Shown: positions 1 through 12,738 of the stretch, in pieces | Numbering within the stretch: the first letter of the stretch is position 1 | How the letters are laid out: each line of letters begins with the position of its first letter | Source: a virus | DNA length: 64,000 nucleotides | Direction: 5' to 3' (one strand) | Virus record (IMG/VR): IMGVR_UViG_3300045972_000807 | Location: 1 to 64,000 of that record | Position numbers and translations under genes: made by a program | The notes under the pieces: generated by a model | Told to the model about the DNA's origin: nothing | Database searches by the model: none | The model's input: the letters and a program-made list of their open reading frames with translations, nothing else

Positions 1-228
1 ATGGCACTTAACGGTGTAGCATGGACAAACGGTGTAGTTAGTTTAACGTCGGATTTGATTTTCGGCGTTTCGGTATTAGCCGAGACCGGCTGGATGCCGA
101 TAAGCCAGTTAGACAAGGACGACCTGGCTTACGTCCGAAAGCTGGTTGACCACAATACTAGCTGCCCTTTCCTTGAGGACTTGGCAGTTGCAGCAGTTAA
201 GCTAACTATTGTACCTGTAGAAGCTTAA
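1..228 (+). CDS. hypothetical phage protein (start at window edge uncertain)
   Basis: 75-aa ORF, first of a run of small + strand ORFs, followed by a hairpin. Confidence 0.55.
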   Translation: MALNGVAWTNGVVSLTSDLIFGVSVLAETGWMPISQLDKDDLAYVRKLVDHNTSCPFLEDLAVAAVKLTIVPVEA

Positions 229-238
229 CTGACCCGGC

Positions 239-260
239 GGCCCCTAGCGGGGCCTATTTC
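239..260 (+). terminator. probable intrinsic terminator
   Basis: GGCCCC-TAGC-GGGGCC hairpin followed by TATTTC. Confidence 0.55.
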
Positions 261-279
261 TAATTTTAGGAGAATCAAA

Positions 280-504
280 ATGGCTAAAGCAAAATCAAAC
301 GTTCAGGCAGTTAAGAAGATGATGGAGTTCAGTTCTGTGGGCCCTATCAAGCAAGTGTTCATCATGACTGCGCTCGAAGAGTACTCTAAGCAGATTCTTG
401 CTGACAAAAGCAAGTGGCCCGACAACTCCATGATCTCGCAAGAGGCTTGGAAGGCTGCCGCCCAAGAAACCTTGGACGATCTCAAAGCCCACTTCGGAAG
501 TTAA
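280..504 (+). CDS. hypothetical phage protein
   Basis: AGGAGA Shine-Dalgarno before ATG; 74 aa. Confidence 0.75.
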   Translation: MAKAKSNVQAVKKMMEFSSVGPIKQVFIMTALEEYSKQILADKSKWPDNSMISQEAWKAAAQETLDDLKAHFGS

Positions 505-507
505 GGG

Positions 508-702
508 ATGGCACACTACAAAGACGTTACTCGAAAGTCTATCAACGCAGAATGGGAAGACTCATTCATTACCTGCTTTTACAAAGAGGCAGACAAGGGC
601 GCAAAGATAGACTGGGAGACAGCAACCAAGCTTAGCCGCCAAGGTTGGGCGCCTAAGGACGCGGTAGCCGAGTATCTTAAACTTAAGGGAGAACCAAAAT
701 GA
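508..702 (+). CDS. hypothetical phage protein
   Basis: 3-nt gap from the upstream ORF; ATGA overlap with the next ORF. Confidence 0.7.
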   Translation: MAHYKDVTRKSINAEWEDSFITCFYKEADKGAKIDWETATKLSRQGWAPKDAVAEYLKLKGEPK

Positions 703-920
703 AGGTAACAAGCGAAAACACCGAGCCAACGCGAGGTTCGATTTCACGATTCACCGCTGAGGCGTCTGAGCTTGGTCTACCGCCAGGTCAATGGCCCAAG
801 ACGTTAGAAACAAGCTTGGGTAACGGGCAGCCCTTTGTGCTGTTCTCAGTACACGACGGAGGCACTCGCCATTACGAGCAGGACAAAGGCTGTATAACTC
901 TTTTGGTGTACAACGATTGA
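699..920 (+). CDS. hypothetical phage protein
   Basis: GGGAG RBS, translational coupling; 73 aa. Confidence 0.7.
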   Translation: MKVTSENTEPTRGSISRFTAEASELGLPPGQWPKTLETSLGNGQPFVLFSVHDGGTRHYEQDKGCITLLVYND

Positions 921-921
921 T

Positions 922-1218
922 ATGCCAAAACCTGCTAGGTGGCACAACGCGGTGATGCTAGAATCCTTCTTAGGCTTCTCTAAAGGATCTAAGATTAAGG
1001 TAAGACTAGCAGTGACTAAAAGGCCCTTAGCTGTAGGTCCCGTCTACATCTTGTTTGACGGGACTAGGTCGATAAGGGTAGTTAGCGAGTTATCAGGAAT
1101 GTTCCGGACTGCTGGAGCTTGCGATGTTTCCGAGGCGGTAACTAGAGCCTATCGAAGGTACTTAGAAAGAAATCCGCCGGGACAAAGATACACGGAGCAA
1201 GAGTATCTGTTCGATTAA
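922..1218 (+). CDS. hypothetical phage protein
   Basis: 1-nt gap from the previous ORF; ends just before the convergent hairpin. Confidence 0.6.
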   Translation: MPKPARWHNAVMLESFLGFSKGSKIKVRLAVTKRPLAVGPVYILFDGTRSIRVVSELSGMFRTAGACDVSEAVTRAYRRYLERNPPGQRYTEQEYLFD

Positions 1219-1219
1219 G

Positions 1220-1273
1220 GCAAGCAAAGACGCCTCCTAAGGAACCTAATCCTTAGGAGGCGTCTTTGCTTGC
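1220..1273. terminator. 24-bp perfect inverted repeat, probable bidirectional terminator
   Basis: GCAAGCAAAGACGCCTCCTAAGGA-ACCTAA-TCCTTAGGAGGCGTCTTTGCTTGC between convergent genes. Confidence 0.8.
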
Positions 1274-1277
1274 GGTT

Positions 1278-2540
1278 TTAGTCGTAAACTAATTCGGCTA
1301 CGTTAACCGAGTTACTACCTGGGTGTTGCGCTTCGTACAAAGCTGCTACACAATGCTCGTACAAGGATTCTAGGGAGGGGCCTCTTGAATCCATAAAGCC
1401 TGCTCTGCCGTAAGCCAGTCCTATGCTAACCGTTAACTTTAGTTCCAGCCTTGGGTTCTTGTCTGTTTCAGCAAAAACCATGAGGTAGTTAGCTAGGTCC
1501 TCGCGTATCTCTTCGGCTACCTGCATACAGCCAGGTACTGTAGTCTCCGGAAGGAAGATCGCAAACTCTGCTCCGCCTAAGCGCCCTGCAACGTCTGTTA
1601 CGCGAAGCTTGGCGTCAAGAACTCTAGCTACCCTTTTAAGTATCTTGTCGCCTATGCTGTACCCGTGCAGGTCATTGAAGGACTTGAAATCGTCTATGCT
1701 CATTATCAGTAAGCTGGAAGTTCCTTCGGTAAGCCTAGACGCCTTGATATAATCTCTATTGCATATCTTCCAGAACATGCGTCGGTTATAAAGCCCTGTA
1801 AGCTCATCTAGCTCCGTGAGTCTCTCAAGGTCGTCTCTTTGCTTGAGTAGCTTTTCATTAAGTTCTTTTAGCTGGCTATTGGTTGTCTCAGTTCTAACAA
1901 AGCTGTGCCACCTAAACGCTGATACTGCCATTGCTAATGGGGCGGACAAGACCAAGTCCATAGCCGAGTGTCTGAAATACTCCCCAACCTCAGCATTTCT
2001 TGCTAAGTAAACCCCTAGGGGAACCATCAGGTAAGCTGACCCGAACAACGGCACCGTTATGCTAGGCGGTGCATGATACGAAAGCGCAACGACAGCTAGC
2101 ACACCGTAGAAAACTAACCCACCTGTCTGCGCCCCGTTAACGATGTCCATGTACGATATGCTCAACCCGGCTATAAGGTAGACCGAGCTAACCACAAAGG
2201 CAACTAGCTGGGGATACTTATTGCTTCGCAAGGACACGGCACAAAACACCAGTAGGGCGATTGCGATGGCAAACATGTCCAGGTGTGCTTCAGCCTGCCC
2301 GCTTATAAGCTTTATCTGGGAGTCCTGAGCTTTCTTTTCTATAGCGTACCAGTAGGCCAAGTACGCGTGGGTGGGTATAAGACAGATCAGGAGAGCCAGG
2401 TAGCTTCTAACCGTAGAGATCGCCCCTAGCTCTTGCGTACTCTTGTACGTGGTTAAAGCGTCTCGTACCTTTTCGGGTATGGCCTTGAACATACCTGAGA
2501 CAATACCCTTGGTACTGTCGTAGTCTAAGATAGAATCCAT
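1278..2540 (-). CDS. membrane-bound degenerate GGDEF-domain protein (GGAEF), intact RxxD I-site
   Basis: About 6 hydrophobic helices, a coiled coil, then DELTGLYNRR, SIDDFKSFND, RVTD-VAGRL-GGAEF, TVSIG, ALYEAQ; ATG at 2540 has a G-rich RBS. Confidence 0.9.
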   Translation of the reverse strand: MDSILDYDSTKGIVSGMFKAIPEKVRDALTTYKSTQELGAISTVRSYLALLICLIPTHAYLAYWYAIEKKAQDSQIKLISGQAEAHLDMFAIAIALLVFCAVSLRSNKYPQLVAFVVSSVYLIAGLSISYMDIVNGAQTGGLVFYGVLAVVALSYHAPPSITVPLFGSAYLMVPLGVYLARNAEVGEYFRHSAMDLVLSAPLAMAVSAFRWHSFVRTETTNSQLKELNEKLLKQRDDLERLTELDELTGLYNRRMFWKICNRDYIKASRLTEGTSSLLIMSIDDFKSFNDLHGYSIGDKILKRVARVLDAKLRVTDVAGRLGGAEFAIFLPETTVPGCMQVAEEIREDLANYLMVFAETDKNPRLELKLTVSIGLAYGRAGFMDSRGPSLESLYEHCVAALYEAQHPGSNSVNVAELVYD

Positions 2541-2561
2541 ATTGTTAACCCCCAACTCTAG

Positions 2562-2762
2562 TTAGTAATGCTCACGTCTGCTATGGGTATCCCTAAAGTC
2601 GCTGTGGCTTAGCATATGAGGATCCCTCTTTTCGCTATGCCGCCTTCGTTCGGTAACTACCTTATCGGGTTTGAGCTTTCCCAAAATTTTTGGTAGTAAC
2701 AGGATAAAAATAAGAGTAACGCCTAGCACAGCAAATGCTGCGTAAATCACAAAGGGACGCAT
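2562..2762 (-). CDS. small single-TM protein with Arg/His-rich tail
   Basis: N-terminal hydrophobic helix and an ERRRHSEKR...SRREHY tail; fills the gap between the two GGDEF genes. Confidence 0.7.
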   Translation of the reverse strand: MRPFVIYAAFAVLGVTLIFILLLPKILGKLKPDKVVTERRRHSEKRDPHMLSHSDFRDTHSRREHY

Positions 2763-2821
2763 TTTTAATTCTAACCTTTATCTATAATTATAAGAGCTAG
2801 ATTTATTTAACCGATACCAAG

Positions 2822-4837
2822 CTAATTTGTACTGAAGTCCGGGTAGGCTACTTCAGATACTGCACTAATAGGAAAGCTAGCTGAATCTACAGGGCGGGAG
2901 AAATAGTACCCTTGCCCAAAGTCGCAGTCAATGCTCTTAAGAAGTTTGCCTTGTAAATTTGTCTCTACGCCTTCCGCTATAACCTTTAAGCCAAGCTTGT
3001 GGGCCATAACTGTTATGGCCTCGCACACAGACATATCGGGAGAGCCTTCATGCAAAGACCTTACAAAGCTTTGATCTATCTTGATGTAGTCAATGGGAAA
3101 CTTCTTTAGGTACGCCAAGCTAGAGTACCCAGTGCCAAAATCGTCCAGTGCTATCTCGATGCCACTAGCTTGTAGGCTATCGAGTTTATCCGCCACCGGC
3201 TCGTTGTTAACCATGATCGTGCTTTCCGTTATCTCTATAACCAGCGCATCCCCCGGGAGACCAAACTGATCTAGAGTTTCCTGTATCTTAAGCTGATGCT
3301 TGTCTAGAGACCGGAACTGGACTGCACTAACATTGACGCTCATCTTAAATTCCGGGTTTATTCTTCTCCAAGCAGCACATTGCCTTATGGCCTCATTGAA
3401 TATGAAGTCCCCAAGTTCCAAGATAAGCCCAGTGTCCTCAGCAACCGGTATAAACTCGGCAGGACTAATCTTGCCGTACCGGGGATGGGCCCACCGTACT
3501 AGGGCCTCGGCCTTAACAATCTTGCCTGTAGAAAGATCTACAATAGGCTGGTACTGCAAAAAGAACTCCCGGTTAGCCAAAGCACTATGAAAGTCACTTA
3601 TGATACGCGTACGCTTCAAGGAAGTTTCTTGCATAGCTGAGTCGTAGTAGCAGTACCTGTTGCGCCCGCTCTTTTTCGCCTCGTACATTGCTTGGTCTGC
3701 GTTCTTAAACAAGGTGGGTATGTCAACGGCATCTTTGGGATGGACTGTTATCCCTATGCTAGCTGAGACATACGCTGTGTCAGCCCCTAGCTTGAAACCT
3801 TCACTAAGGACCTTAAGTACGTTAGAGGCCACAAGGCCGGCATCCTCAGGATTAGCTATGTTATAGATAACCACGACGAATTCGTCTCCGCCTAACCGGC
3901 CAACGCAGTCTGTATTCCTAACGCAAGTCTTCATACGCGCAGCTGCCTCTACCAGAAGCCTGTCCCCTGCTTGGTGGCCGTGTGCGTCGTTAACTTCTTT
4001 GAACCTGTCAAGGTCAACAAACAATAGGCCAACCAGCGAAGTACTTCTTCCCGCAGCCACAACGTCTTCCAAGATGTTGTAAACTCTAGCTCGGTTAGGT
4101 AGTCCCGTAAGGCCGTCAAAGTAAGCACCCTTCCAGTTGGTTAAGACATTCTCGTAGTCAAGCGTGAAGCTTATAAACGCTAAAGAGGACAGATAAACCA
4201 AGGGCCCTATAAGGGGAAGATCAAGATACATACCATAGGCAAACACGTCTATCATCTGACCTGCAAAATACCAAGATAAGCAAAATAGCAGTATACCTGA
4301 CGTATGGTCCTGCTTGATTAGGTAATACTTTACTAGGTAGAACATCTGTACCAAGATAATAAAAAGCATTATTGCTTTAAACATAAGGTACTCGGGAGTT
4401 AGGACTCCCGTTGGGGATGCTGCGATGTAGTTGTAGATAGCTACGTCGCGCAGATGCATGTCTGGGCTAAACGCCTCTATGTTACCTATAGAGAGAAAAG
4501 CAAAGCACACTGCTAAGGATCCCAGAGCATAAGAAAATCCCAATGTCTTGGTATTACCACTTTTGGTGTACAGAGAGACGAACCTTAGCATCAACAGGTT
4601 AAGCAGCCCGCTGATAAAAATGCTGATAGGTAGAATGTGCCCAAACTCTTGCTGTGTGACAGCCAGCAAGAGATTCCTGTGGGTTAACCCAGACACTACG
4701 CCTACCGCGCACATTGCGGAGAACGTAAGGTTCATTTTGTCTGAGTGCCTTTGAATGCCTATCCTAGCATGGGTTAGGGAGGCATAAGCGCAAACACCTA
4801 TAAGAATATAGGTTATGCTAGTCATTATTGCGATCAT
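2822..4837 (-). CDS. 7TM sensor-GGDEF-EAL diguanylate cyclase/phosphodiesterase
   Basis: About 7 TM N-terminus; DGLTGLPNR, DLDRFKEVND, RNTD, RLGGDEF, ADQAMYEAK; EAL domain with YQP, EALVRW, VNVS, EITE, DDFGTGYSSL, KID, AEGVE, QGY. Confidence 0.95.
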   Translation of the reverse strand: MIAIMTSITYILIGVCAYASLTHARIGIQRHSDKMNLTFSAMCAVGVVSGLTHRNLLLAVTQQEFGHILPISIFISGLLNLLMLRFVSLYTKSGNTKTLGFSYALGSLAVCFAFLSIGNIEAFSPDMHLRDVAIYNYIAASPTGVLTPEYLMFKAIMLFIILVQMFYLVKYYLIKQDHTSGILLFCLSWYFAGQMIDVFAYGMYLDLPLIGPLVYLSSLAFISFTLDYENVLTNWKGAYFDGLTGLPNRARVYNILEDVVAAGRSTSLVGLLFVDLDRFKEVNDAHGHQAGDRLLVEAAARMKTCVRNTDCVGRLGGDEFVVVIYNIANPEDAGLVASNVLKVLSEGFKLGADTAYVSASIGITVHPKDAVDIPTLFKNADQAMYEAKKSGRNRYCYYDSAMQETSLKRTRIISDFHSALANREFFLQYQPIVDLSTGKIVKAEALVRWAHPRYGKISPAEFIPVAEDTGLILELGDFIFNEAIRQCAAWRRINPEFKMSVNVSAVQFRSLDKHQLKIQETLDQFGLPGDALVIEITESTIMVNNEPVADKLDSLQASGIEIALDDFGTGYSSLAYLKKFPIDYIKIDQSFVRSLHEGSPDMSVCEAITVMAHKLGLKVIAEGVETNLQGKLLKSIDCDFGQGYYFSRPVDSASFPISAVSEVAYPDFSTN

Positions 4838-4840
4838 TTT

Positions 4841-5740
4841 TTAGGTGCTCCTTGCAGCAATCAGCTTTACGCTACGCTCCACCCTGGGTAACAGTTTACT
4901 GTCCTCAGTACATATGGTTTTGTACGGACAGTAGTGGCAAAGCTCTTTTAGTTTTGGGTTATCCGAAAGACTTCGGCGCTTACTAACAACGACTTCTACA
5001 TCAGCTACGGTCTTGGCTTGTGACACAGCCAAGAACGCGCGCTTGTAACCTTCTATCCTTTTTAGGATCTTAGGGTACTCCTCCTCGAAAGTGTGTCCGT
5101 AGAACTGGGTGGACGATCTATAAACCCGTTTAGCATTGTTACGGGCTATGTAGATTAGAGTCCAGCCTTCTATGTCGTATCCTTGTTCCTTCAGCAAGGC
5201 AGCGTACGCTTCTATCTGCCTTACGTTTTCTAAATTAGGTAAGAGGCCTTTAGCCTCTAGTTTTCTCATCGACGTTGTCTTATAGTCGATGATTGTTATC
5301 TTGCCGCTCTTGAGAAGAATAGCCCCGTCGAGGTGGCCTACAACAAAGCCTTTTTTGTACTCGTGTTCTCGACCAACTACTACTTCGCTACCGCACTTTT
5401 TACATACCTTAGGCTTCAGGCAAAACTTGTGAAGTCTGCCGCACGAAAAGCATTTCCAGTCCTGAAGCAAAAATGGGCTATGGTCCAGCACCGCCTGTAT
5501 TCCGCTATGAACCGCGGTACCCACAGAGGTAAAGAACGTGCCCATGAATTTGTTACTACGCTTACCGCTTGAAGCACTTGGGTAACTTAATAACCATTTT
5601 GTTCCGCAGAACGGGAAACTAGATATACGGAGAAACCGTAACCTATCAGGGTCTAGCTTCTCCGTAACCTCGTAAGTGTCGATAGCATGTTCAATGGCCT
5701 GTTCAGCTGTCTTCACTACCGTGGGTTGCCGTAATTCCAT
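4841..5740 (-). CDS. Cas4-like PD-(D/E)xK exonuclease
   Basis: N-terminal Cys plus C-terminal CxxCxxxxxC Fe-S cysteines; GHLDG, IIDYKT, QxxxY; internal CxxC/CxxC. Confidence 0.85.
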   Translation of the reverse strand: MELRQPTVVKTAEQAIEHAIDTYEVTEKLDPDRLRFLRISSFPFCGTKWLLSYPSASSGKRSNKFMGTFFTSVGTAVHSGIQAVLDHSPFLLQDWKCFSCGRLHKFCLKPKVCKKCGSEVVVGREHEYKKGFVVGHLDGAILLKSGKITIIDYKTTSMRKLEAKGLLPNLENVRQIEAYAALLKEQGYDIEGWTLIYIARNNAKRVYRSSTQFYGHTFEEEYPKILKRIEGYKRAFLAVSQAKTVADVEVVVSKRRSLSDNPKLKELCHYCPYKTICTEDSKLLPRVERSVKLIAARST

Positions 5741-6052
5741 TTAGTGTACTGCACCTGAAGGGGTGCAGCTCATAAGCAGGTTATTCAAATCCAGAGTTAT
5801 ACGCATAACGCCGTTACCCGGGAGCTCCAACTGAGCCTCCAAGGGAAGGTGAAGCAGACTAATAGCACTTGTAACGGCGTCTTCAAGATGCTTCTCATAG
5901 GAGAACCCAGGAGTCATCTTTTCAGGTGGGACATTAGAGAGCCGAATAAGCTCTTCGGTGAACGTATGGCACAGGGCGTTGGTGTCGGAAAAATGTAACC
6001 GCACTCGAGGTGTGGTATATACTGATATGTGAACCATTATAGGTCCTTTCAT
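5741..6052 (-). CDS. hypothetical protein
   Basis: Abuts the Cas4-like gene with no gap, same strand. Confidence 0.6.
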   Translation of the reverse strand: MKGPIMVHISVYTTPRVRLHFSDTNALCHTFTEELIRLSNVPPEKMTPGFSYEKHLEDAVTSAISLLHLPLEAQLELPGNGVMRITLDLNNLLMSCTPSGAVH

Positions 6053-6088
6053 TGCCCTTACCTAAAAGGAATTATGTTATGTCGTTGA

Positions 6089-6535
6089 CTATCTGTTGTG
6101 CGCGTCCCACGCCTTATTTACCAAGTCTTCATGAGGTACAAAAGACCTTAGGTGCTTCCAACCTGCAGAGGGTCCCCAACGCTTTTCGTTGTCCTCCGGT
6201 ATCTTGGACCTGGTGTATTGTTCCACCTGAATGACCTTAGGGCCACTAAACGAGAAACAAAACTCTAGCATTACTTCAGGACGTATCTTACCTTCAGGCG
6301 TCTTGTGAACAGACGAGAAGTAAGCGTACATCTGTACCTTAGCGAATCCCCATTTGTCCACACCGTACTTGTAGGCGTGTTCATAGTTTTGATACTCCTG
6401 AAACCAAGGGTGCTTAAGCATAGAGTTGGTGCGCCCTTTGCCTAGCTTCTTTACCAAGTCTTTATCTAGTATCGGTGCCAACGGCACCTCTACAGACGAT
6501 AGGACTCTGCGGGTTCTGAGTTTACGAATAGACAC
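6089..6535 (-). CDS. hypothetical protein, possible head protein (SIRK leader)
   Basis: AAGGA RBS; N-terminus SIRKLRTRRVLSS resembles other putative head-protein leaders. Confidence 0.7.
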   Translation of the reverse strand: MSIRKLRTRRVLSSVEVPLAPILDKDLVKKLGKGRTNSMLKHPWFQEYQNYEHAYKYGVDKWGFAKVQMYAYFSSVHKTPEGKIRPEVMLEFCFSFSGPKVIQVEQYTRSKIPEDNEKRWGPSAGWKHLRSFVPHEDLVNKAWDAHNR

Positions 6536-6544
6536 GCTAAGTCC

Positions 6545-7240
6545 TTATCGGTTCCGGAACGCGTTGGTTAGCTCGGTGTTCCAGTCATGGTTGGATATGG
6601 CTGAAGGGTAGGCGGGGTCTTCCACTGCTGAGAGCTCGAAGGGTTTAATGTCGTGAACATTACGGAAGATCAGGAGCCCACCTTCTTCGTAGAACTCCAC
6701 GGGTTGCTTGGGGTTTATGTGCCGGCATTGGCCTTCAATGGCTCCGCAGCAGGAACAGCTATAGTCAGAAACCATACAGCCCATGCTCCATGTTGTCAGG
6801 TCACCCGAGACAATACGCGAGGTTACGTCTGTGCGCTTGGTTGTATCCACAGCTGCGAGTGCCATAACCTTGTAGATACGACCACCGTTGTAACCTTCAG
6901 CGGGCACAAGTGCTACGTCAGCAATGATGCCGATAGCAGCATCGTGTATCTCACTCTTGTGCTCGTAGTGCAACGGCATACCTGCCCATCCCTTGTAGCC
7001 TTGCCGGCCCAACTCTGGATTCCAGCGTACTAGCTCAGCCAAAGGAATGCCGATCCCGTTACGGTTGGGCAAGTCCGAGGTAAGAATGGGTACCACGGAG
7101 AAATGGTAATCGCTAACGTTACTGCTAAGGTTGAACGGCTTGCAGGCGAAAGGCAGGATACGCTCAAAGTCCAGAGTTTGAGCGTCGGATGCGTGAACGG
7201 CCTTAGCGGCTGCGGTGATGTTTAGTCTTTGAATTGCCAT
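6545..7240 (-). CDS. putative prohead (capsid maturation) protease
   Basis: PNRNG, PLHYEH, WSMGC followed by CSCCG...C-x-H and ELSAVEDPA, typical of herpes/HK97-fold phage proteases; lies near the portal. Confidence 0.65.
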   Translation of the reverse strand: MAIQRLNITAAAKAVHASDAQTLDFERILPFACKPFNLSSNVSDYHFSVVPILTSDLPNRNGIGIPLAELVRWNPELGRQGYKGWAGMPLHYEHKSEIHDAAIGIIADVALVPAEGYNGGRIYKVMALAAVDTTKRTDVTSRIVSGDLTTWSMGCMVSDYSCSCCGAIEGQCRHINPKQPVEFYEEGGLLIFRNVHDIKPFELSAVEDPAYPSAISNHDWNTELTNAFRNR

Positions 7241-7251
7241 GATTTTTCCGA

Positions 7252-7500
7252 TTAGGATTTAAGACGCGTGCCGTCCTTGGTATACATCTTGTACTGCTTA
7301 TTAAGCGAGTTCAGCTCAGCAGAGTCGCCTGCAAGATACGCTTTATCGGTAGAGGTCGCTTTACCATCCTTTACCTTAGCCTTGTAAGAGTTAACTGTCT
7401 CCTCCAGCTGCTTCTTACGCGGCTCATACTGGAACTTAATCCAGGATTCGATAGACGCGTAACCTCCGTAGTTACCGGCTGTTAAATTTTTTATAGGCAT
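7252..7500 (-). CDS. hypothetical protein, possible head protein (MPIK leader)
   Basis: ATG at 7500 overlaps the upstream TAA; MPIKNLTAG. Confidence 0.65.
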   Translation of the reverse strand: MPIKNLTAGNYGGYASIESWIKFQYEPRKKQLEETVNSYKAKVKDGKATSTDKAYLAGDSAELNSLNKQYKMYTKDGTRLKS

Positions 7501-7934
7501 TACTTGTATCCTAATATCTTGATTGAAAGCCACTTAGAAGGGTCTTCCGTCTGAGCTAAATTAGTTAGCTCCCTGGAAGCTGCTATGTTAACCTTAGCCC
7601 ACTCGAGGCTACTTAACGTAGCATTTTCAGAAATTCGGAGTAACCGTAGACCCAGAGCTCTTTTGTACCGGGCACCTGCGTCTGCAATTGTCTTGGCCGT
7701 TACTAGCTCATGGTTGCCCGCGTGGAAAACAGGCGAGACTATGAACTGTACCAGCCTGTCCTTAATACGCCAAGCCCGTGACCCGATGGGTGTAATCATA
7801 GCAACAGGCATGGACTCAGGATCTCTGCGAGAACCGTAGTCACTAATGAACTCTACGCTTTTAGGGGTCACTGTTTGGATTAAACCAGTGCCTTTTTGAA
7901 GCACTAGGTAGTCACCAGATTTAGGCTTGGACAT
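7500..7934 (-). CDS. hypothetical protein
   Basis: AGGA RBS; 144 aa in the head operon. Confidence 0.7.
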   Translation of the reverse strand: MSKPKSGDYLVLQKGTGLIQTVTPKSVEFISDYGSRRDPESMPVAMITPIGSRAWRIKDRLVQFIVSPVFHAGNHELVTAKTIADAGARYKRALGLRLLRISENATLSSLEWAKVNIAASRELTNLAQTEDPSKWLSIKILGYK

Positions 7935-7948
7935 TTGGCAGTTTCCTA

Positions 7949-8416
7949 CTAAACGAAAGGAGAATAGAAAAAATTTTGAGGCAACACTACACCTTGGTTG
8001 CCACTAGGCCGAACGGGAGGCATCTTGTTTAGAGTCAAGCTCATACCAGGTGGTACAACCCGCTCGTCAGACTGGCGAATAAGCTCGGGATAGTGCTCAG
8101 TGCCTTCACCGTGTGAGAAGCGGATGCCTGTGCTTTGCTGAGGACGCATGTCCTTAACAATCCAGTCTTCACAGCAGTCAGGCATAACAGGCTCTTCCTC
8201 GATGATGTAGGCGCGCCACGTAGTAGGCAAAAGACTTTCTACGCGCTTTACGCCCACAACCTTTAGCTGAGAATCAACCCATGCCGAGTCTTCGCCAGCA
8301 GGAGCTTGAACCTGGACACGCTGAAGGTCAGCACCGTCCTTTAGTGCCATAAGGTCCTTGAGCACCTGAGCCTTTAGCTCAGTATCGTACTTGTCCCAAA
8401 TGATTCCGATGTCCAT
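7949..8416 (-). CDS. hypothetical protein
   Basis: GGAGG RBS; 155 aa. Confidence 0.7.
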   Translation of the reverse strand: MDIGIIWDKYDTELKAQVLKDLMALKDGADLQRVQVQAPAGEDSAWVDSQLKVVGVKRVESLLPTTWRAYIIEEEPVMPDCCEDWIVKDMRPQQSTGIRFSHGEGTEHYPELIRQSDERVVPPGMSLTLNKMPPVRPSGNQGVVLPQNFFYSPFV

Positions 8417-8676: not shown

Positions 8677-10518
8677 TTACCATCCTATTTTCGGCATTGT
8701 GCCATGCTTGGCAAGCAGTTGTTTCTTAACTTCAGCAAACCTATGTGGGTCACTCAAGGACTTGACCGCCTTAACGATCTTGTCGTTGGCCATCTGGGTT
8801 TCATTGGCCGACGCAGGAACAGGCTTGCCTGATTTGTTGTACTTGAAGTCTCCACCGAACTCGCGATCCAAAAGGCTAGGAGTGGGAGTACGCAGCGCGC
8901 TCTTCATTGGGTACGAGTCAACGTGCTTACGGAAATCATCCAGAGACATTAGAGACGCCTCTTCGGTTGTGTCTCCGCTATCGCCAGTATCTTGTCCGTC
9001 GCCAGGTTGCCCAGGTTTCTTGCTAGGGTCAGTGCCCATGAGCTTAGCTATCTGATCCCGAATTTCCTTGTCCTGTGCCAAGTCGAACAGGGAAGCACTC
9101 AGGTCGATATTGGCAGCCGCCGCCCAGGTCTTTAGTCCAACAGGGAAACCCTTTTCAGACAGCTTGTCCAAGTTCTCTAACAGAGCAGCACTGTTAGGGG
9201 TCTTCAAGTTCTTTGCCCACTGAATGGTCGGCATCTTCAGGTTCTTGGTATTCCTCATGTTGTACAGAAGACTCTCAAGCGTTCCTTTGTCCCGAACTTC
9301 CTTGGGGTCCTTGTACAGCTGATTTGTAATGGCAATCAGCGGGAACAGCTTGGAGTAGAACAGCTTGTGAGTGAGGTACTCCCGATAGCTGTCCAGGTTG
9401 TCCATGAACATAGTCAGGGACGCTTCAGCATTAGCGTAAGTCGCATCGGACGACAAGAACGCTTCTGATATTCCCAAAGCTCGCAGCTTGTAAGGCACCA
9501 GTACGTCAGCGCTGTCTGTCCACTTCCAGATTTCACCAGCGGGACGAATGTCAGACAGAGTAACGCCTTGCCGTGTAGCAACCCAAGCGCCTAAAGGATC
9601 CATATCCGACATTTGGAACTTCTGAGTGTACTCCAGCATCTCAGCCGCAGTAGGTTCCCAGTCGTCAGTACCCATCATGATCTGGGTAGTAGCCCGCTGC
9701 CGCTTTGAAGCCTCAGTCAGTGTCCCACGGAACAGAGTCTTCTCAAGCATATACATTGGCAAAAGCCGACGCAGGTAAGACACACAAGCGCTGTCTTGTG
9801 TACCCTTACGAAGAGCAAGCAACGTCGTAACCGGGTCAAGGACATTGGACCCGTTCATAAAGTTCTCAAGGATCTTAGTCGGGTAGCCGCGCAGGGTAGC
9901 GTCAGCATACGGACTATAAGATGCCATGAACTGCTTCAGGTTGTTGGCGCTGTTAACCACCACCACTGGATCAACCGAGAACAAAGGCTGCGGACTGATA
10001 GTGGAGTTAAACCGGTCATGAACCAGGACGTCATGGAAGCCGTTAGTCTTGTTGTCATACAGCAGTGTCCCAATGAAAGCGCCGTCCACCAAAAAGTTGC
10101 GGGATATCTGCGGAAGCATAATCCGCATGTCCAACCGGGCTAACGCATCAGCGTAAAGCTCAGACACCTGCTGGTCAGCACCTGTAAGAGTCCAGTTGCT
10201 GAAAGCAAGTCCACATTGTAGGTCAACGGCTGAGCCTCCTACGTTGTCGTAGTGCCAGATATCTCGCAGCAAGATTCCCAGCTGAGCATCATCGCTGGAG
10301 TTGTCAGGGATGATACCGCGGAACATCGTTGAGAATTGAACGCCGCCGAACATGCCAACGCTCATAGCCGAATCTGCGAACGCGGTCTCTTTATGCTGTC
10401 CGTTAGCTGAGCTACCTGTCCCTTTGGACAGGTACTGGGCGCGTGACCCACCAGGGTTAACTGCCTGGCTACGCTTTTGGAGTACTCCGTTTGCTACGGA
10501 CACACGGGATTTGAACAT
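8677..10518 (-). CDS. portal protein (putative)
   Basis: 613 aa directly downstream of terminase; helical core, portal-like FLSSDATYANAE segment, low-complexity C-terminal tail. Confidence 0.75.
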   Translation of the reverse strand: MFKSRVSVANGVLQKRSQAVNPGGSRAQYLSKGTGSSANGQHKETAFADSAMSVGMFGGVQFSTMFRGIIPDNSSDDAQLGILLRDIWHYDNVGGSAVDLQCGLAFSNWTLTGADQQVSELYADALARLDMRIMLPQISRNFLVDGAFIGTLLYDNKTNGFHDVLVHDRFNSTISPQPLFSVDPVVVVNSANNLKQFMASYSPYADATLRGYPTKILENFMNGSNVLDPVTTLLALRKGTQDSACVSYLRRLLPMYMLEKTLFRGTLTEASKRQRATTQIMMGTDDWEPTAAEMLEYTQKFQMSDMDPLGAWVATRQGVTLSDIRPAGEIWKWTDSADVLVPYKLRALGISEAFLSSDATYANAEASLTMFMDNLDSYREYLTHKLFYSKLFPLIAITNQLYKDPKEVRDKGTLESLLYNMRNTKNLKMPTIQWAKNLKTPNSAALLENLDKLSEKGFPVGLKTWAAAANIDLSASLFDLAQDKEIRDQIAKLMGTDPSKKPGQPGDGQDTGDSGDTTEEASLMSLDDFRKHVDSYPMKSALRTPTPSLLDREFGGDFKYNKSGKPVPASANETQMANDKIVKAVKSLSDPHRFAEVKKQLLAKHGTMPKIGW

Positions 10519-10561
10519 TGTGGTTTATCCTTAATTACAGGTTAGACCCCTGCTTTACTAT

Positions 10562-10571
10562 ATTAAAATTG
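10562..10571 (-). promoter_or_regulatory. candidate late-promoter element CAATTTTAAT
   Basis: Related sites lie upstream of other structural blocks (47536-47545, 55639-55647, 40241-40250). Confidence 0.4.
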
Positions 10572-10572
10572 T

Positions 10573-12738
10573 TCAGTACCTGCGGCGGCCGAAGCCCCCG
10601 GCAAATACCTGGGAGAAGTTGAATGAGGAATTCCCTGCCACTAAGATACCCGGATTGTCTGAAATCTCACGATCAATTTCTTTGAATTTAGACAGATACT
10701 TGGCTACCCGCTCGTTAAGAATCCCTGTTACTGCCAAGACCATCGCTCGGTGTAAGTCATCCGTATAGCGTATCCCTGAAGGAGACGCGCCCTTAGTAAC
10801 GGTACCACCAAGCTCTTGTACGGTTAGCATCTGAAGGTACAGGTGGTCAGAGGGATGATCTCGTAGCTCACGCTTGTAGTCAGTTATAAGTTCTGTCCTA
10901 CCCGGATCAAGATCTAATTTGGGCAAGTACAGGCAGCCACTCTCAACTAAGCTTACCACGTTAGTAAAATCTCCCATTTTTACGCTGTACTGCTGAGATT
11001 TAAGATCCTTAACGTCGTCTTGTGCCTGCTGTAGAATCTGGAGAGAGTTCCAACGGTCTGACAGGAGTGCTTTAACGTTACACTCTTTACAGATAGGCAG
11101 AATAATCTTTTGGTACATCGTAGGGAAATGAATTACCTTTCCCGGTTGAGGAACTACCTCAATAAGAACTGGCACCCTAATGTCACCGCCCATCCGGTAA
11201 GATAGTGCTAACGAAAAAGCGTTATCGGTGGAACCTGCGTCAAGTGCTAGTATCGAGGGTGGATGCTTTGCTGACTTGTATTTACGAACAGCCCTTGCTA
11301 CTGTATGCTCAGAACTAGCTTCATAGGCTACACCGTACCACGGTTCGATTTGAAAGCACGCAAGCGCGCTATCCCGTTGGTAAAAGTCAGAACCAATCTT
11401 AGGAGGGTTAGCCCCGTAATCTCGTTCTGCCTTCTTAGCATTACGTCTGTACGCTGCAACAATGGTGGGATGCTCACGTGGGAACATCGGTGTTATTTCC
11501 CACGTGGGCTGCTTAACACAGCACGCATTCGGGTTGTCGTTATTCTCTAGGTACAGGCGACAGATCTTATCCATCCAAGAGAACGGACTACTGATGTTAA
11601 AGTTGATGCCTTGGCAAAGGTGCTGAATGCCTTTTTCCCGGGCGGCAATAATAGCACCCTGCACAGTAGTCAAGCTATTGGATAGTGACTGGTGAACTTC
11701 GTCTGCATTTGCCCGTTCACGGTCATCGCCATCCCCATCCTCGGACTGATCCGGGTTGAATGGAAACAAACCTAATTCGTCGGTAACTGCTGCGAACCGC
11801 GTATCACCGCGAAGTGTTCTCTTAGCTGGGCCTGAGGAATACAGGTCCAAGTTTCTATGGAACAGGCGTAGGTACAAACCATTGACCTGCTTGAACTGGT
11901 AAAGCTCTTTTCCTGTCTCTAAACGCTTGGCGTCCAGAATTTGGAACAGCTCTTTGTACCAGGTAGAGCTAGCAATAAGCCGTCTGAACGGTGACCAGAG
12001 AGTCTTAGCTGCCTGGTGGGATGTGGTGGCAACCATAGTACACGTAAGCGGAGAGAACTCCTGAATACCGCTATACATAGAACTTAGCTTAGGGCTCTTA
12101 AGTAGCACATGAGTAACGTAGGCTATTAGCATAACGCTAACAGTGGACTTGCCTGACCGCTGCCCAGCGATCATAATCAATTCTGTCTTGTCGTGTAGCT
12201 CGCCGGAAGCCACAAGCTCGTGCTTGGTGGCCTCGCAGTACGGGCAAATCCCGAACTCAAGGAAGGCTACCTTCTTACGAAAATCCTTTGGATCCATGTC
12301 CACAGGGATGTTCATAATGTCCTCGTACCAGAAAGGCTTGGTACACCTTGGGCAGAACTCAGCCAGCAAGACATACGACATGTACATCTGACGAGCAAAG
12401 GGCATCTGTCCTGTACCGATAACCCTAACGCAGAAGTCAAAGAAGTTCTTAGCCATTGGGAGGCTAGAGTCGTCTACCCGCAGATCGCGAACTGTATTGG
12501 TTTCGGGATCATACGCCTTTGCCATTGCATTGGCAACAAAGTTGTCATCAGCATCGTCGGGTAACAATTCCTCAACCGTGGAAACCCATTCCACTTCTCC
12601 ATTAGGAAGTAGCTCAGCATTTACGGGATGATCTTTAACTATACGCTTCCACTTGTCGCAGGAGTACCCTACTATCTTGACCTTCTTAGGATCAGGACAG
12701 GTAAGAAACTTAGCACAGTTAAGACACTTTTTAGCCAT
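10573..12738 (-). CDS. terL: terminase large subunit
   Basis: Walker A GQRSGKS, Walker B AAVTDE, coupling motif ISSP, RNase H-fold LALDAG and DDL; N-terminal Cys clusters. Confidence 0.88.
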   Translation of the reverse strand: MAKKCLNCAKFLTCPDPKKVKIVGYSCDKWKRIVKDHPVNAELLPNGEVEWVSTVEELLPDDADDNFVANAMAKAYDPETNTVRDLRVDDSSLPMAKNFFDFCVRVIGTGQMPFARQMYMSYVLLAEFCPRCTKPFWYEDIMNIPVDMDPKDFRKKVAFLEFGICPYCEATKHELVASGELHDKTELIMIAGQRSGKSTVSVMLIAYVTHVLLKSPKLSSMYSGIQEFSPLTCTMVATTSHQAAKTLWSPFRRLIASSTWYKELFQILDAKRLETGKELYQFKQVNGLYLRLFHRNLDLYSSGPAKRTLRGDTRFAAVTDELGLFPFNPDQSEDGDGDDRERANADEVHQSLSNSLTTVQGAIIAAREKGIQHLCQGINFNISSPFSWMDKICRLYLENNDNPNACCVKQPTWEITPMFPREHPTIVAAYRRNAKKAERDYGANPPKIGSDFYQRDSALACFQIEPWYGVAYEASSEHTVARAVRKYKSAKHPPSILALDAGSTDNAFSLALSYRMGGDIRVPVLIEVVPQPGKVIHFPTMYQKIILPICKECNVKALLSDRWNSLQILQQAQDDVKDLKSQQYSVKMGDFTNVVSLVESGCLYLPKLDLDPGRTELITDYKRELRDHPSDHLYLQMLTVQELGGTVTKGASPSGIRYTDDLHRAMVLAVTGILNERVAKYLSKFKEIDREISDNPGILVAGNSSFNFSQVFAGGFGRRRY

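Follow-up and report, generated by a model that had tools for sequence, protein, structure and literature searches.

The first 64 kb of the 171,756-bp IMG/VR record IMGVR_UViG_3300045972_000807 (64,000 nucleotides (nt), hereafter the window) carry three adjacent genes, lying at the end of a block of phage packaging and head genes, that we interpret as a phage-owned, vertically inherited membrane module for signaling by cyclic dimeric guanosine monophosphate (c-di-GMP), a reading to which we assign a probability of about 0.72. The first gene encodes a seven-transmembrane (7TM) protein with tandem GGDEF and EAL domains, the second a short membrane peptide and the third a membrane protein with a degenerate GGDEF domain. 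Their motifs support the composition put forward in an original prediction made from the DNA letters alone, namely a putative sensor-enzyme accompanied by a small membrane peptide and a candidate c-di-GMP receptor. The anatomy given there, in which three open reading frames (ORFs) follow a Cas4-like gene after a 3-nt gap and are closed by a 24-bp hairpin, also agrees with our coordinates and domain assignments. The three genes of the cassette are the following (aa, amino acids; TM, transmembrane segments).

2822-4837, minus strand: gene 1, a 671-aa 7TM-GGDEF-EAL protein (Pfam and hydrophobic segments)
2562-2762, minus strand: gene 2, a 66-aa single-pass membrane peptide (hydrophobic segment)
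1278-2540, minus strand: gene 3, a 420-aa 6TM protein with a degenerate GGDEF domain (Pfam and hydrophobic segments)

Every GGDEF, I-site and EAL residue that we checked in gene 1 is retained, as had been claimed for its catalytic motifs. The GGDEF domain (PF00990; nt 3656-4126) matches its Pfam model with E 1e-44 and 152.6 bits against a cut-off of 23.8, the EAL domain (PF00563; nt 2891-3592) with E 4.5e-72 and 242.7 bits against a cut-off of 31.3, and residues 238-662 align without large gaps to MorA (PDB 4RNH, E 7e-101) and PA0575 (5M3C, E 1e-99). On the MorA alignment the cyclase contacts are complete (DLDRFKEVND, GD and EAKKSGRN), including the guanine-contacting Asp of canonical c-di-GMP cyclases, which is the D of GD, and so is the EAL set (EALVRW, N, EITES, DDFGTGYSS of loop 6, KID, EGVE and QGY). 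The I-site, RNTD, stands five residues ahead of RLGGDEF, the same spacing as in WspR, and all of these motifs are invariant in the homolog P0005, which is 78-79% identical. Because all cyclase and EAL motifs are retained, gene 1 could serve both as a cyclase and as a phosphodiesterase. In its tandem GGDEF-EAL arrangement, RxxD I-site, GGDEF site and EAL catalytic and loop-6 residues, gene 1 resembles MorA/PA0575 of Pseudomonas aeruginosa; unlike these proteins, it has a 7TM input without a PAS domain, is phage-borne and occupies a long separate branch.

The input module of gene 1 (residues 1-235, nt 4133-4837) contains seven hydrophobic segments within residues 1-227. Residues 1-240 gave zero Pfam matches, even at E up to 10, and a full HMMER pass of the 7TM region over 1.84 billion representatives returned four relatives, all of them marginal (E 3e-5 to 9e-4); PAS domains follow the 7TM part in three, two of which are histidine kinases. 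Two of the four show a sub-threshold match to HisKA_7TM (PF16927; 25.2 and 20.3 bits vs. 28.6), and the same family was returned at 0.86 when the 7TM region was submitted to a language-model look-alike search. The module thus appears HisKA_7TM-like, in that it weakly resembles the 7TM region of sensor histidine kinases.

Gene 3 is, as predicted, a second membrane GGDEF protein, although the prediction has to be corrected in one respect, since the domain is degenerate. It is recognized by Pfam with E 1.6e-29 and 103.2 bits against a cut-off of 23.8 (nt 1311-1811), and compared with WspR it reads RLGGAEF for RYGGEEF, AQHPGSN for AKNNGRN and GY for GH, with two phosphate-binding residues lost (K to Q and R to S). 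Structural work on PleD and WspR has established that metal and phosphate binding depend on the third GGDEF residue together with the Lys/Arg pair, and that RxxD binds c-di-GMP. In gene 3 both the A-site and the phosphate contacts of an active diguanylate cyclase are missing, while the I-site position is occupied by RVTD, five residues ahead of GGAEF and again spaced as in WspR. RVTD-x5-GGAEF, AQHPGSN and GY are invariant in three sequence lineages, and the domain as a whole, at 84-92%, is as conserved as the predicted active one of gene 1. Based on the GGAEF sequence and the lost phosphate-binding residues, taken together with the retained RxxD I-site, gene 3 is likely to be a c-di-GMP binder and not a cyclase. 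PelD, PopA and CdgI/YeaI are degenerate-GGDEF receptors that bind c-di-GMP via the I-site, and gene 3 is like them in sequence, encoding a membrane protein whose A-site is dead and whose RxxD is intact. It differs in lacking a GAF or receiver domain, in carrying a six-helix module without a homolog outside the phage clade, and in that binding is, in its case, predicted.

Gene 3 was called from a TTG codon as 1278-2555, and its true extent is most likely 1278-2540, because three homologs are all 420 aa long and a GGGGG Shine-Dalgarno-like run lies 9 nt upstream of the ATG at 2540. The protein starts with a 38-residue tail, followed by six hydrophobic segments, a predicted long (coiled) helical linker and the GGDEF domain. 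For the N-terminal 245 residues, a word-indexed search of 5.8 billion proteins found no homolog outside the phage clade, and Pfam returned nothing meaningful for the membrane module at E up to 10. A language-model search described the membrane part as generically MASE-like (scores 0.92-0.96), which we take as a lead only. The N-terminal cytoplasmic tail (residues 1-38, window 2427-2540, MDSILDYDSTKGIVSGMFK...) ranks with the best-conserved parts of the protein at 82-90% identity, its first 19 residues being invariant, and this conservation hints at a possible docking motif.

The length and position of gene 2, and the single hydrophobic segment that had marked it as a 66-aa membrane peptide, are confirmed. 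The segment is strong and N-terminal (residues 5-23, Kyte-Doolittle mean 2.83), is followed by lysines, and leads into a basic C-terminal tail of 40 residues rich in Arg, His and Ser, which the positive-inside rule predicts to be cytoplasmic. No family match was found in Pfam (even at E up to 10) or PHROG. Homologs of 67-69 aa are present at the same position in four other assemblies (L005, L006, L007 and L011) and share the motifs RRRHSE.R and HSDF..TH.RR..Y. Gene 2 is preceded by a conserved Shine-Dalgarno-like AAGG/GGAG and an A-rich spacer; the spacer varies in length and no conserved promoter-like block was seen in it, so that the ribosome-binding region alone is kept. A complex prediction combining gene 3, residues 1-240 of gene 1 and the peptide, run without controls, scored 0.00 and counts neither for nor against binding.

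A phage precedent for such a peptide had been cited in the original prediction and is borne out by the literature, as the YIP peptides of PB1-like Pseudomonas phages act on the transmembrane helices of the host cyclase YfiN and raise c-di-GMP (PMC8085984). YIP and gene 2 are alike as small phage-encoded peptides tied to a membrane diguanylate cyclase; unlike the YIP phages, the phage described here also brings c-di-GMP enzymes itself. By analogy, gene 2 would most likely modulate gene 1, gene 3 or a host cyclase. An RRxxxR-like run in gene 2, reminiscent of the first PilZ motif, was considered and dropped, as the second PilZ motif is absent and the window copy ends in K. The PilZ family (PF07238) has zero matches in the entire 171,756-bp record, and no Rfam family, and hence no c-di-GMP riboswitch, was found in the 64-kb window.

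The cassette is embedded in phage genes, and the features on its two sides are as follows.

10573-12738, minus strand: TerL (PHROG)
8677-10518, minus strand: portal (PHROG)
6545-7240, minus strand: prohead protease (PHROG)
4841-5740, minus strand: Cas4-like PD-(D/E)XK nuclease (Pfam PDDEXK_1, E 1.6e-10; phrog_1706, E 4e-21)
1220-1273, no strand: hairpin with a 24-bp perfect stem and a 6-nt loop (RNAfold)
922-1218, plus strand: convergent 98-aa ORF, 62% identical to the same-position ORF in L005 and L007
1-228, plus strand: 75-aa ORF at the cut end of the record, 66% identical to a 77-aa ORF at L005 12123-12356

The same cassette with both flanks recurs in the four other assemblies, which come from other samples, giving three sequence lineages overall. 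This agrees with the earlier judgment that the genes belong to the phage and are neither host contamination nor a chimera. The 19,981-bp contig L005 carries TerL, portal, protease and nuclease, then a 676-aa GGDEF-EAL protein, a 69-aa peptide and a 420-aa GGDEF protein, and finally convergent small ORFs. The sequence data underlying L005-L007 and L011 are SRR29454058, SRR29454057, ERR10509555 and ERZ27300165. Between the window and L005, the cassette has diverged to the same extent as its neighbors: gene 1 shares 78% and gene 3 76% of its amino acids with the L005 copy, in comparison with nuclease (76%), protease (78%) and portal (85%), and saturation of synonymous sites is seen in all genes compared. 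Against L011, the ratio of nonsynonymous to synonymous substitution rates (dN/dS) is 0.026 for the EAL end of gene 1, 0.079 for the peptide and 0.036 for gene 3, values that are rough since dS is near saturation; between L005 and L007 it is 0.06-0.07 for the two GGDEF genes. Five copies of the cassette contain not a single stop or frameshift. These figures point to strong purifying selection on the cassette.

Base composition and phylogeny are in keeping with phage ownership. The GC content, the GC content at third codon positions (GC3) and the codon-usage distance of the cassette all fall inside the spread of the phage's other 106 ORFs, so that the observation of a phage-like codon style holds. 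No bacterial chromosomal locus near-identical to the cassette was found, the best bacterial match to gene 1 among 5.8 billion proteins being at most 56% identical over the GGDEF-EAL part only. The search of phage genomes and the trees that had been proposed as a check gave the four assemblies described above and a phage pair which sits on a branch of 1.28 substitutions per site, outside all 44 sampled beta- and gammaproteobacterial homologs; no donor lineage was identified from this tree.

The phage itself can be placed through its portal, which is 39% identical to the portals of Ralstonia phage phiRSL1 and Burkholderia phage BcepSauron. Portal relatives are jumbo phages of 220-265 kb that infect Ralstonia, Burkholderia, Achromobacter, Xanthomonas, Erwinia and Dickeya. 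The 171-kb record has the features of a virulent jumbo myovirus, that is, adjacent hallmark genes, large lytic-type relatives and no integration machinery, neither integrase nor resolvase having been found in it. A megablast of window positions 1-8000 against GenBank phages gave zero matches, and no close relative came up when gene 1, gene 3 and the portal were each searched singly in IMG/VR, by a scan that may omit the window's own record. We consider the carrier of the cassette to be a small clade of uncultured jumbo myoviruses, distant kin of phiRSL1 and BcepSauron, and expect the host to be a betaproteobacterium.

On the minus strand the genes are packed end to end, from TerL and portal through several small ORFs to the protease, two more small ORFs and the nuclease, and then the cassette. 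PHROG E-values within the TerL-to-nuclease block range from 4e-21 to 1e-155; those of protease, portal, TerL, UvsX and SSB, all upstream of the cassette on the same strand, range from 6e-62 to 1e-155, the UvsX and SSB genes lying farther upstream than the block. The nuclease gene, 76% identical to its L005 counterpart, is the last recognizable member of the TerL-portal-protease block. Its stop codon ends at 4841 and the gene 1 ATG lies at 4837, which leaves a gap of 3 nt, and an AGGAG located inside the nuclease gene precedes this ATG by 10 nt. Judging from gene order and spacing, the cassette appears to be co-transcribed with the packaging and head genes; its position at the 3′ end of the block is as the original prediction described, whereas membership in a head operon is deduced from this arrangement. 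A consensus promoter and terminator scan gave no more sites than in shuffled sequence. The claim that both flanks are phage genes stands in full for the upstream, TerL-to-nuclease side; the low-coordinate flank spans only 1.2 kb within the window, but its small ORFs are kept beside the cassette in related phage contigs. The 98-aa ORF in this flank is without a match in both Pfam and PHROG. In the nuclease, a single N-terminal cysteine and a C-terminal trio (C-x2-C-x5-C) match the pattern of the Cas4 Fe-S cluster, and an inserted CxxC...CxxC segment resembles a zinc ribbon.

The hairpin (RNAfold free energy −48.4 kcal/mol) nearly fills the 59-nt gap between the convergent stops at 1218 and 1278. 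In L005, L006 and L007 the stem differs from that of the window by several changes on both arms and yet keeps 25 perfect pairs, and in L011 the stem is identical to that of the window. Given its position, with genes converging on it from both sides, the hairpin probably terminates transcription in both directions. Separately from this, the 6-nt loop (window 1244-1249; hairpins at L005 11264-11321, L007 4149-4206 and L011 about 2413-2470) is reverse-complemented between close relatives with unchanged stems, reading GTTTGT in L005 and ACAAAC in L007. Likewise, TTAGGT in the window faces ACCCAA in L011, its reverse complement with one mismatch. These flips look like repeated inversion by the palindrome itself.

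Considering the wider group, the cassette is an accessory block fixed in one sub-clade. This follows from the 176-kb metagenome contig L093 (portal 57% identical), which retains the order TerL, portal, protease, nuclease, and in which the nuclease is followed by unrelated ORFs without a Pfam family and by no GGDEF within 7 kb, together with a tblastn of the cassette against the GenBank relatives that gave zero matches. Separately, the matches to two core genes are interrupted in the distant relatives (L093 7014-9563 and L094 10001-13321), by about 0.4 kb in TerL and about 1.5 kb in the portal, which suggests an inserted intron, intein or homing endonuclease.

The original prediction held that a phage with its own sensor-enzyme and candidate receptor is not well described. 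In the literature searched, which included little from subscription journals and in which absence is therefore unproven, we found no characterized phage-encoded diguanylate cyclase or EAL phosphodiesterase, and to this extent the claim stands; it was somewhat overstated, as PHROGs include GGDEF and EAL families, all of "unknown function", and two further phage records carry such genes. Among 50,697 GenBank phage records, GGDEF/EAL matches are mostly contaminated or fragmentary entries. Isolate phages carry single domains or fragments, such as gp350 of Bacillus phage G, a gene of Citrobacter phage Chris1, and 75-aa GGDEF fragments in Bordetella phages MW2 and CN2 and in Pseudomonas; among the matches listed, these are at most 38% identical to gene 1 and in this differ from it. 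Among the GenBank matches listed, no isolate record covers both the GGDEF and EAL parts or has a paired degenerate GGDEF, and at least 80% of gene 1 is covered only in unannotated fecal fragments or misfiled bacterial contigs. In IMG/VR we found 183 loci with tandem GGDEF-EAL relatives, mostly near record ends; among the best 80 of these, 12 lie at least 10 kb from both ends.

In two such records the GGDEF-EAL genes appear convincingly phage-borne from their sequence context. The first, L044 (IMGVR_UViG_3300035182_000466, 170 kb), is distantly related to the phage described here, with five proteins in common, and at 9353-12221 carries a PAS-GGDEF-EAL gene (638 aa), then an HD_5/HD-GYP gene (313 aa) and a glycosyltransferase/methyltransferase gene, surrounded by virion-type genes and ORFans; here, then, a phage has another c-di-GMP block, of different construction. 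The second, L068 (IMGVR_UViG_3300044960_000113, 184 kb), has a GGDEF-EAL gene of about 715 aa at 9173-11314, whose neighbors match PHROGs with E 1e-76 to 8e-203. Phage-borne c-di-GMP enzymes thus constitute a recurrent, essentially undescribed accessory function, of which the arrangement of 7TM enzyme, peptide and I-site-only GGDEF is confined to the clade described here. In a survey of 224 jumbo-phage genomes, HD-GYP and other phosphodiesterase families were predicted to act as counter-nucleotide defenses, GGDEF and EAL proteins being unnamed in its text (PMC7824862). These phosphodiesterases and the cassette have in common that they are jumbo-phage genes acting on cyclic nucleotides; the cassette differs in that, by its sequence, it would also synthesize and probably sense the nucleotide.

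From the gene content, motifs, phage ownership, conservation and selection observed, we infer how such a module would work, that is, its enzymatic activity, the binding of c-di-GMP by gene 3, the timing, the sensed signal, the net direction and the benefit. We hypothesize that gene 1 is an inner-membrane enzyme whose 7TM input gates a GGDEF cyclase, with a feedback I-site, and an EAL phosphodiesterase, and that it raises or lowers c-di-GMP in the infected cell upon a membrane or periplasmic cue. Gene 3 would bind c-di-GMP through its RxxD I-site and act as the reader of the module, or as a sink, and gene 2 may tune gene 1, gene 3 or a host cyclase in the way YIP does with YfiN. The module probably acts late in infection, because the cassette seems to share its transcription with the packaging and head genes. 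The payoff that we favor is a reset of pili, flagella and exopolysaccharide outputs, which could lead to superinfection exclusion or to progeny release. Some of these outputs double as phage receptors, an example being the c-di-GMP-dependent glycan that N4 requires (PMC8669472). Receptor display, motility and lysis timing, named as targets in the original prediction, are putative targets of the module.

Several points weigh against this interpretation. Many tandem GGDEF-EAL proteins are phosphodiesterases only, and for this reason "signal-responsive circuit" may overstate what is a plain c-di-GMP drain. Retention of the RxxD I-site in gene 3 is not proof of c-di-GMP binding. The AlphaFold2 (AF2) model of gene 3, built on a three-row alignment, is unusable (mean predicted local distance difference test (pLDDT) 41, predicted template modeling score (pTM) 0.23). 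Finally, about 58 kb adjoining the cassette, on one side only, were removed by the public pipeline: the source contig, according to the cluster record of the gene 1 protein, is 229,765 bp long compared with 171,756 bp for the record, whose first base is exactly the ATG of the 75-aa ORF, while the opposite end (171756) lies inside an ORF. The content of this removed part is judged from the homologous L005 flank only.

Past the cut point of the window, that flank shows no bacterial hallmarks; it contains ORFans, a hemerythrin gene and an HNH endonuclease of phage type (phrog_8048, E 9e-28). The hemerythrin-domain gene (L005 16460-16861, 133 aa) lies about 5 kb past the cassette, within the region that the window's record lacks. 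Diguanylate cyclases commonly have hemerythrin domains as O2 and NO inputs, and a functional link between this gene and the cassette is conceivable.

Other explanations of the cassette were weighed against the same evidence. It is possible, if rather unlikely, that the signal is internal to the phage: gene 1 would turn a membrane or envelope cue into a local pulse of c-di-GMP, and gene 3 would read it through its I-site and, together with the peptide, directly control a late membrane event specific to the phage. With the same tentative standing and as part of the same proposal, the event may be lysis timing or the exclusion of superinfecting phage, which would make the cassette a self-contained viral writer-eraser-reader circuit and more than a disturbance of host signaling.

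A counter-defense role, with immune cyclic dinucleotides broken down by the EAL domain and captured by the degenerate GGDEF, as a device acting against systems of the cyclic-oligonucleotide-based antiphage signaling (CBASS) type, is in our view improbable. The phosphodiesterases of jumbo phages, including HD-GYP, have been predicted to serve as counter-nucleotide defenses (PMC7824862), the PAS-GGDEF-EAL gene of L044 adjoins an HD_5/HD-GYP gene, and gene 3 could be a sponge by virtue of its I-site. Keeping in mind, however, that a pure degrader has no need of a complete cyclase site and I-site, the strong constraint on both in gene 1 argues against this role, as do the presence there of the guanine-contacting Asp of c-di-GMP cyclases and the elaborate membrane input modules on both large proteins. 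Moreover, it is established that EAL domains act specifically on c-di-GMP, a molecule that CBASS does not typically use as its signal.

We find it quite doubtful that the cassette is a dominant-negative takeover, with gene 3 as a dead subunit that blocks a host cyclase and gene 1 acting mainly as phosphodiesterase, so that host c-di-GMP collapses and no reader is involved. GGDEF domains are known to catalyze only as dimers in which both partners are active, on balance many GGDEF-EAL tandems work as phosphodiesterases, and the membrane part of gene 3 is MASE-like in the language-model search (again a lead only). Such a mimic of a host subunit should, however, have a membrane module with bacterial relatives, and that of gene 3 has no detectable bacterial homolog; further, the I-site of gene 3 is invariant and the cyclase site of gene 1 is fully retained.

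The idea that the cassette is host DNA, that is, bacterial genes flanking an integrated prophage or a misassembly, is largely refuted, and we would give it very little credence. It could draw on the "provirus" label of the IMG/VR record (CheckV completeness 65%), on the location of the cassette 1.3 kb from the cut end, and on the tendency of GGDEF-EAL matches in viral collections to lie at record ends or in contaminated records. The label, however, most likely reflects a jumbo-phage contig that was falsely trimmed, because no integrase was found in the record and the relatives, including the cultured phages with the closest portals, are jumbo phages with genomes of about 220-265 kb. Considering the recurrence of the cassette with both flanks in four other assemblies, its co-divergence with neighboring core genes, selection on it, its phage-like composition and codon use, the distance of all bacterial homologs, the absence of an integrase and the phage-like far flank in L005, a host origin is very unlikely. 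That the genes are functionless passengers, recently captured and in decay, as the lost catalytic residues of gene 3 might suggest, is barely credible in view of dN/dS values of 0.03-0.08 at saturated synonymous sites, the intact reading frames of all five copies and a degenerate domain conserved at 84-92%.

Cumulatively, our findings favor a phage-owned c-di-GMP module. c-di-GMP controls pili, flagella, exopolysaccharide and biofilm, which are the surfaces that phages cross and the communities in which they spread, and in the literature searched, small peptides acting on a host cyclase are the only known means by which phages interfere with this messenger. If our interpretation is true, viruses can import a whole second-messenger module, consisting of a membrane enzyme, a non-catalytic binder and a peptide, and keep it under selection. 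The GGDEF-EAL genes in two further jumbo-phage records, one of them beside HD-GYP, suggest that this may be a wider, so far undescribed habit.

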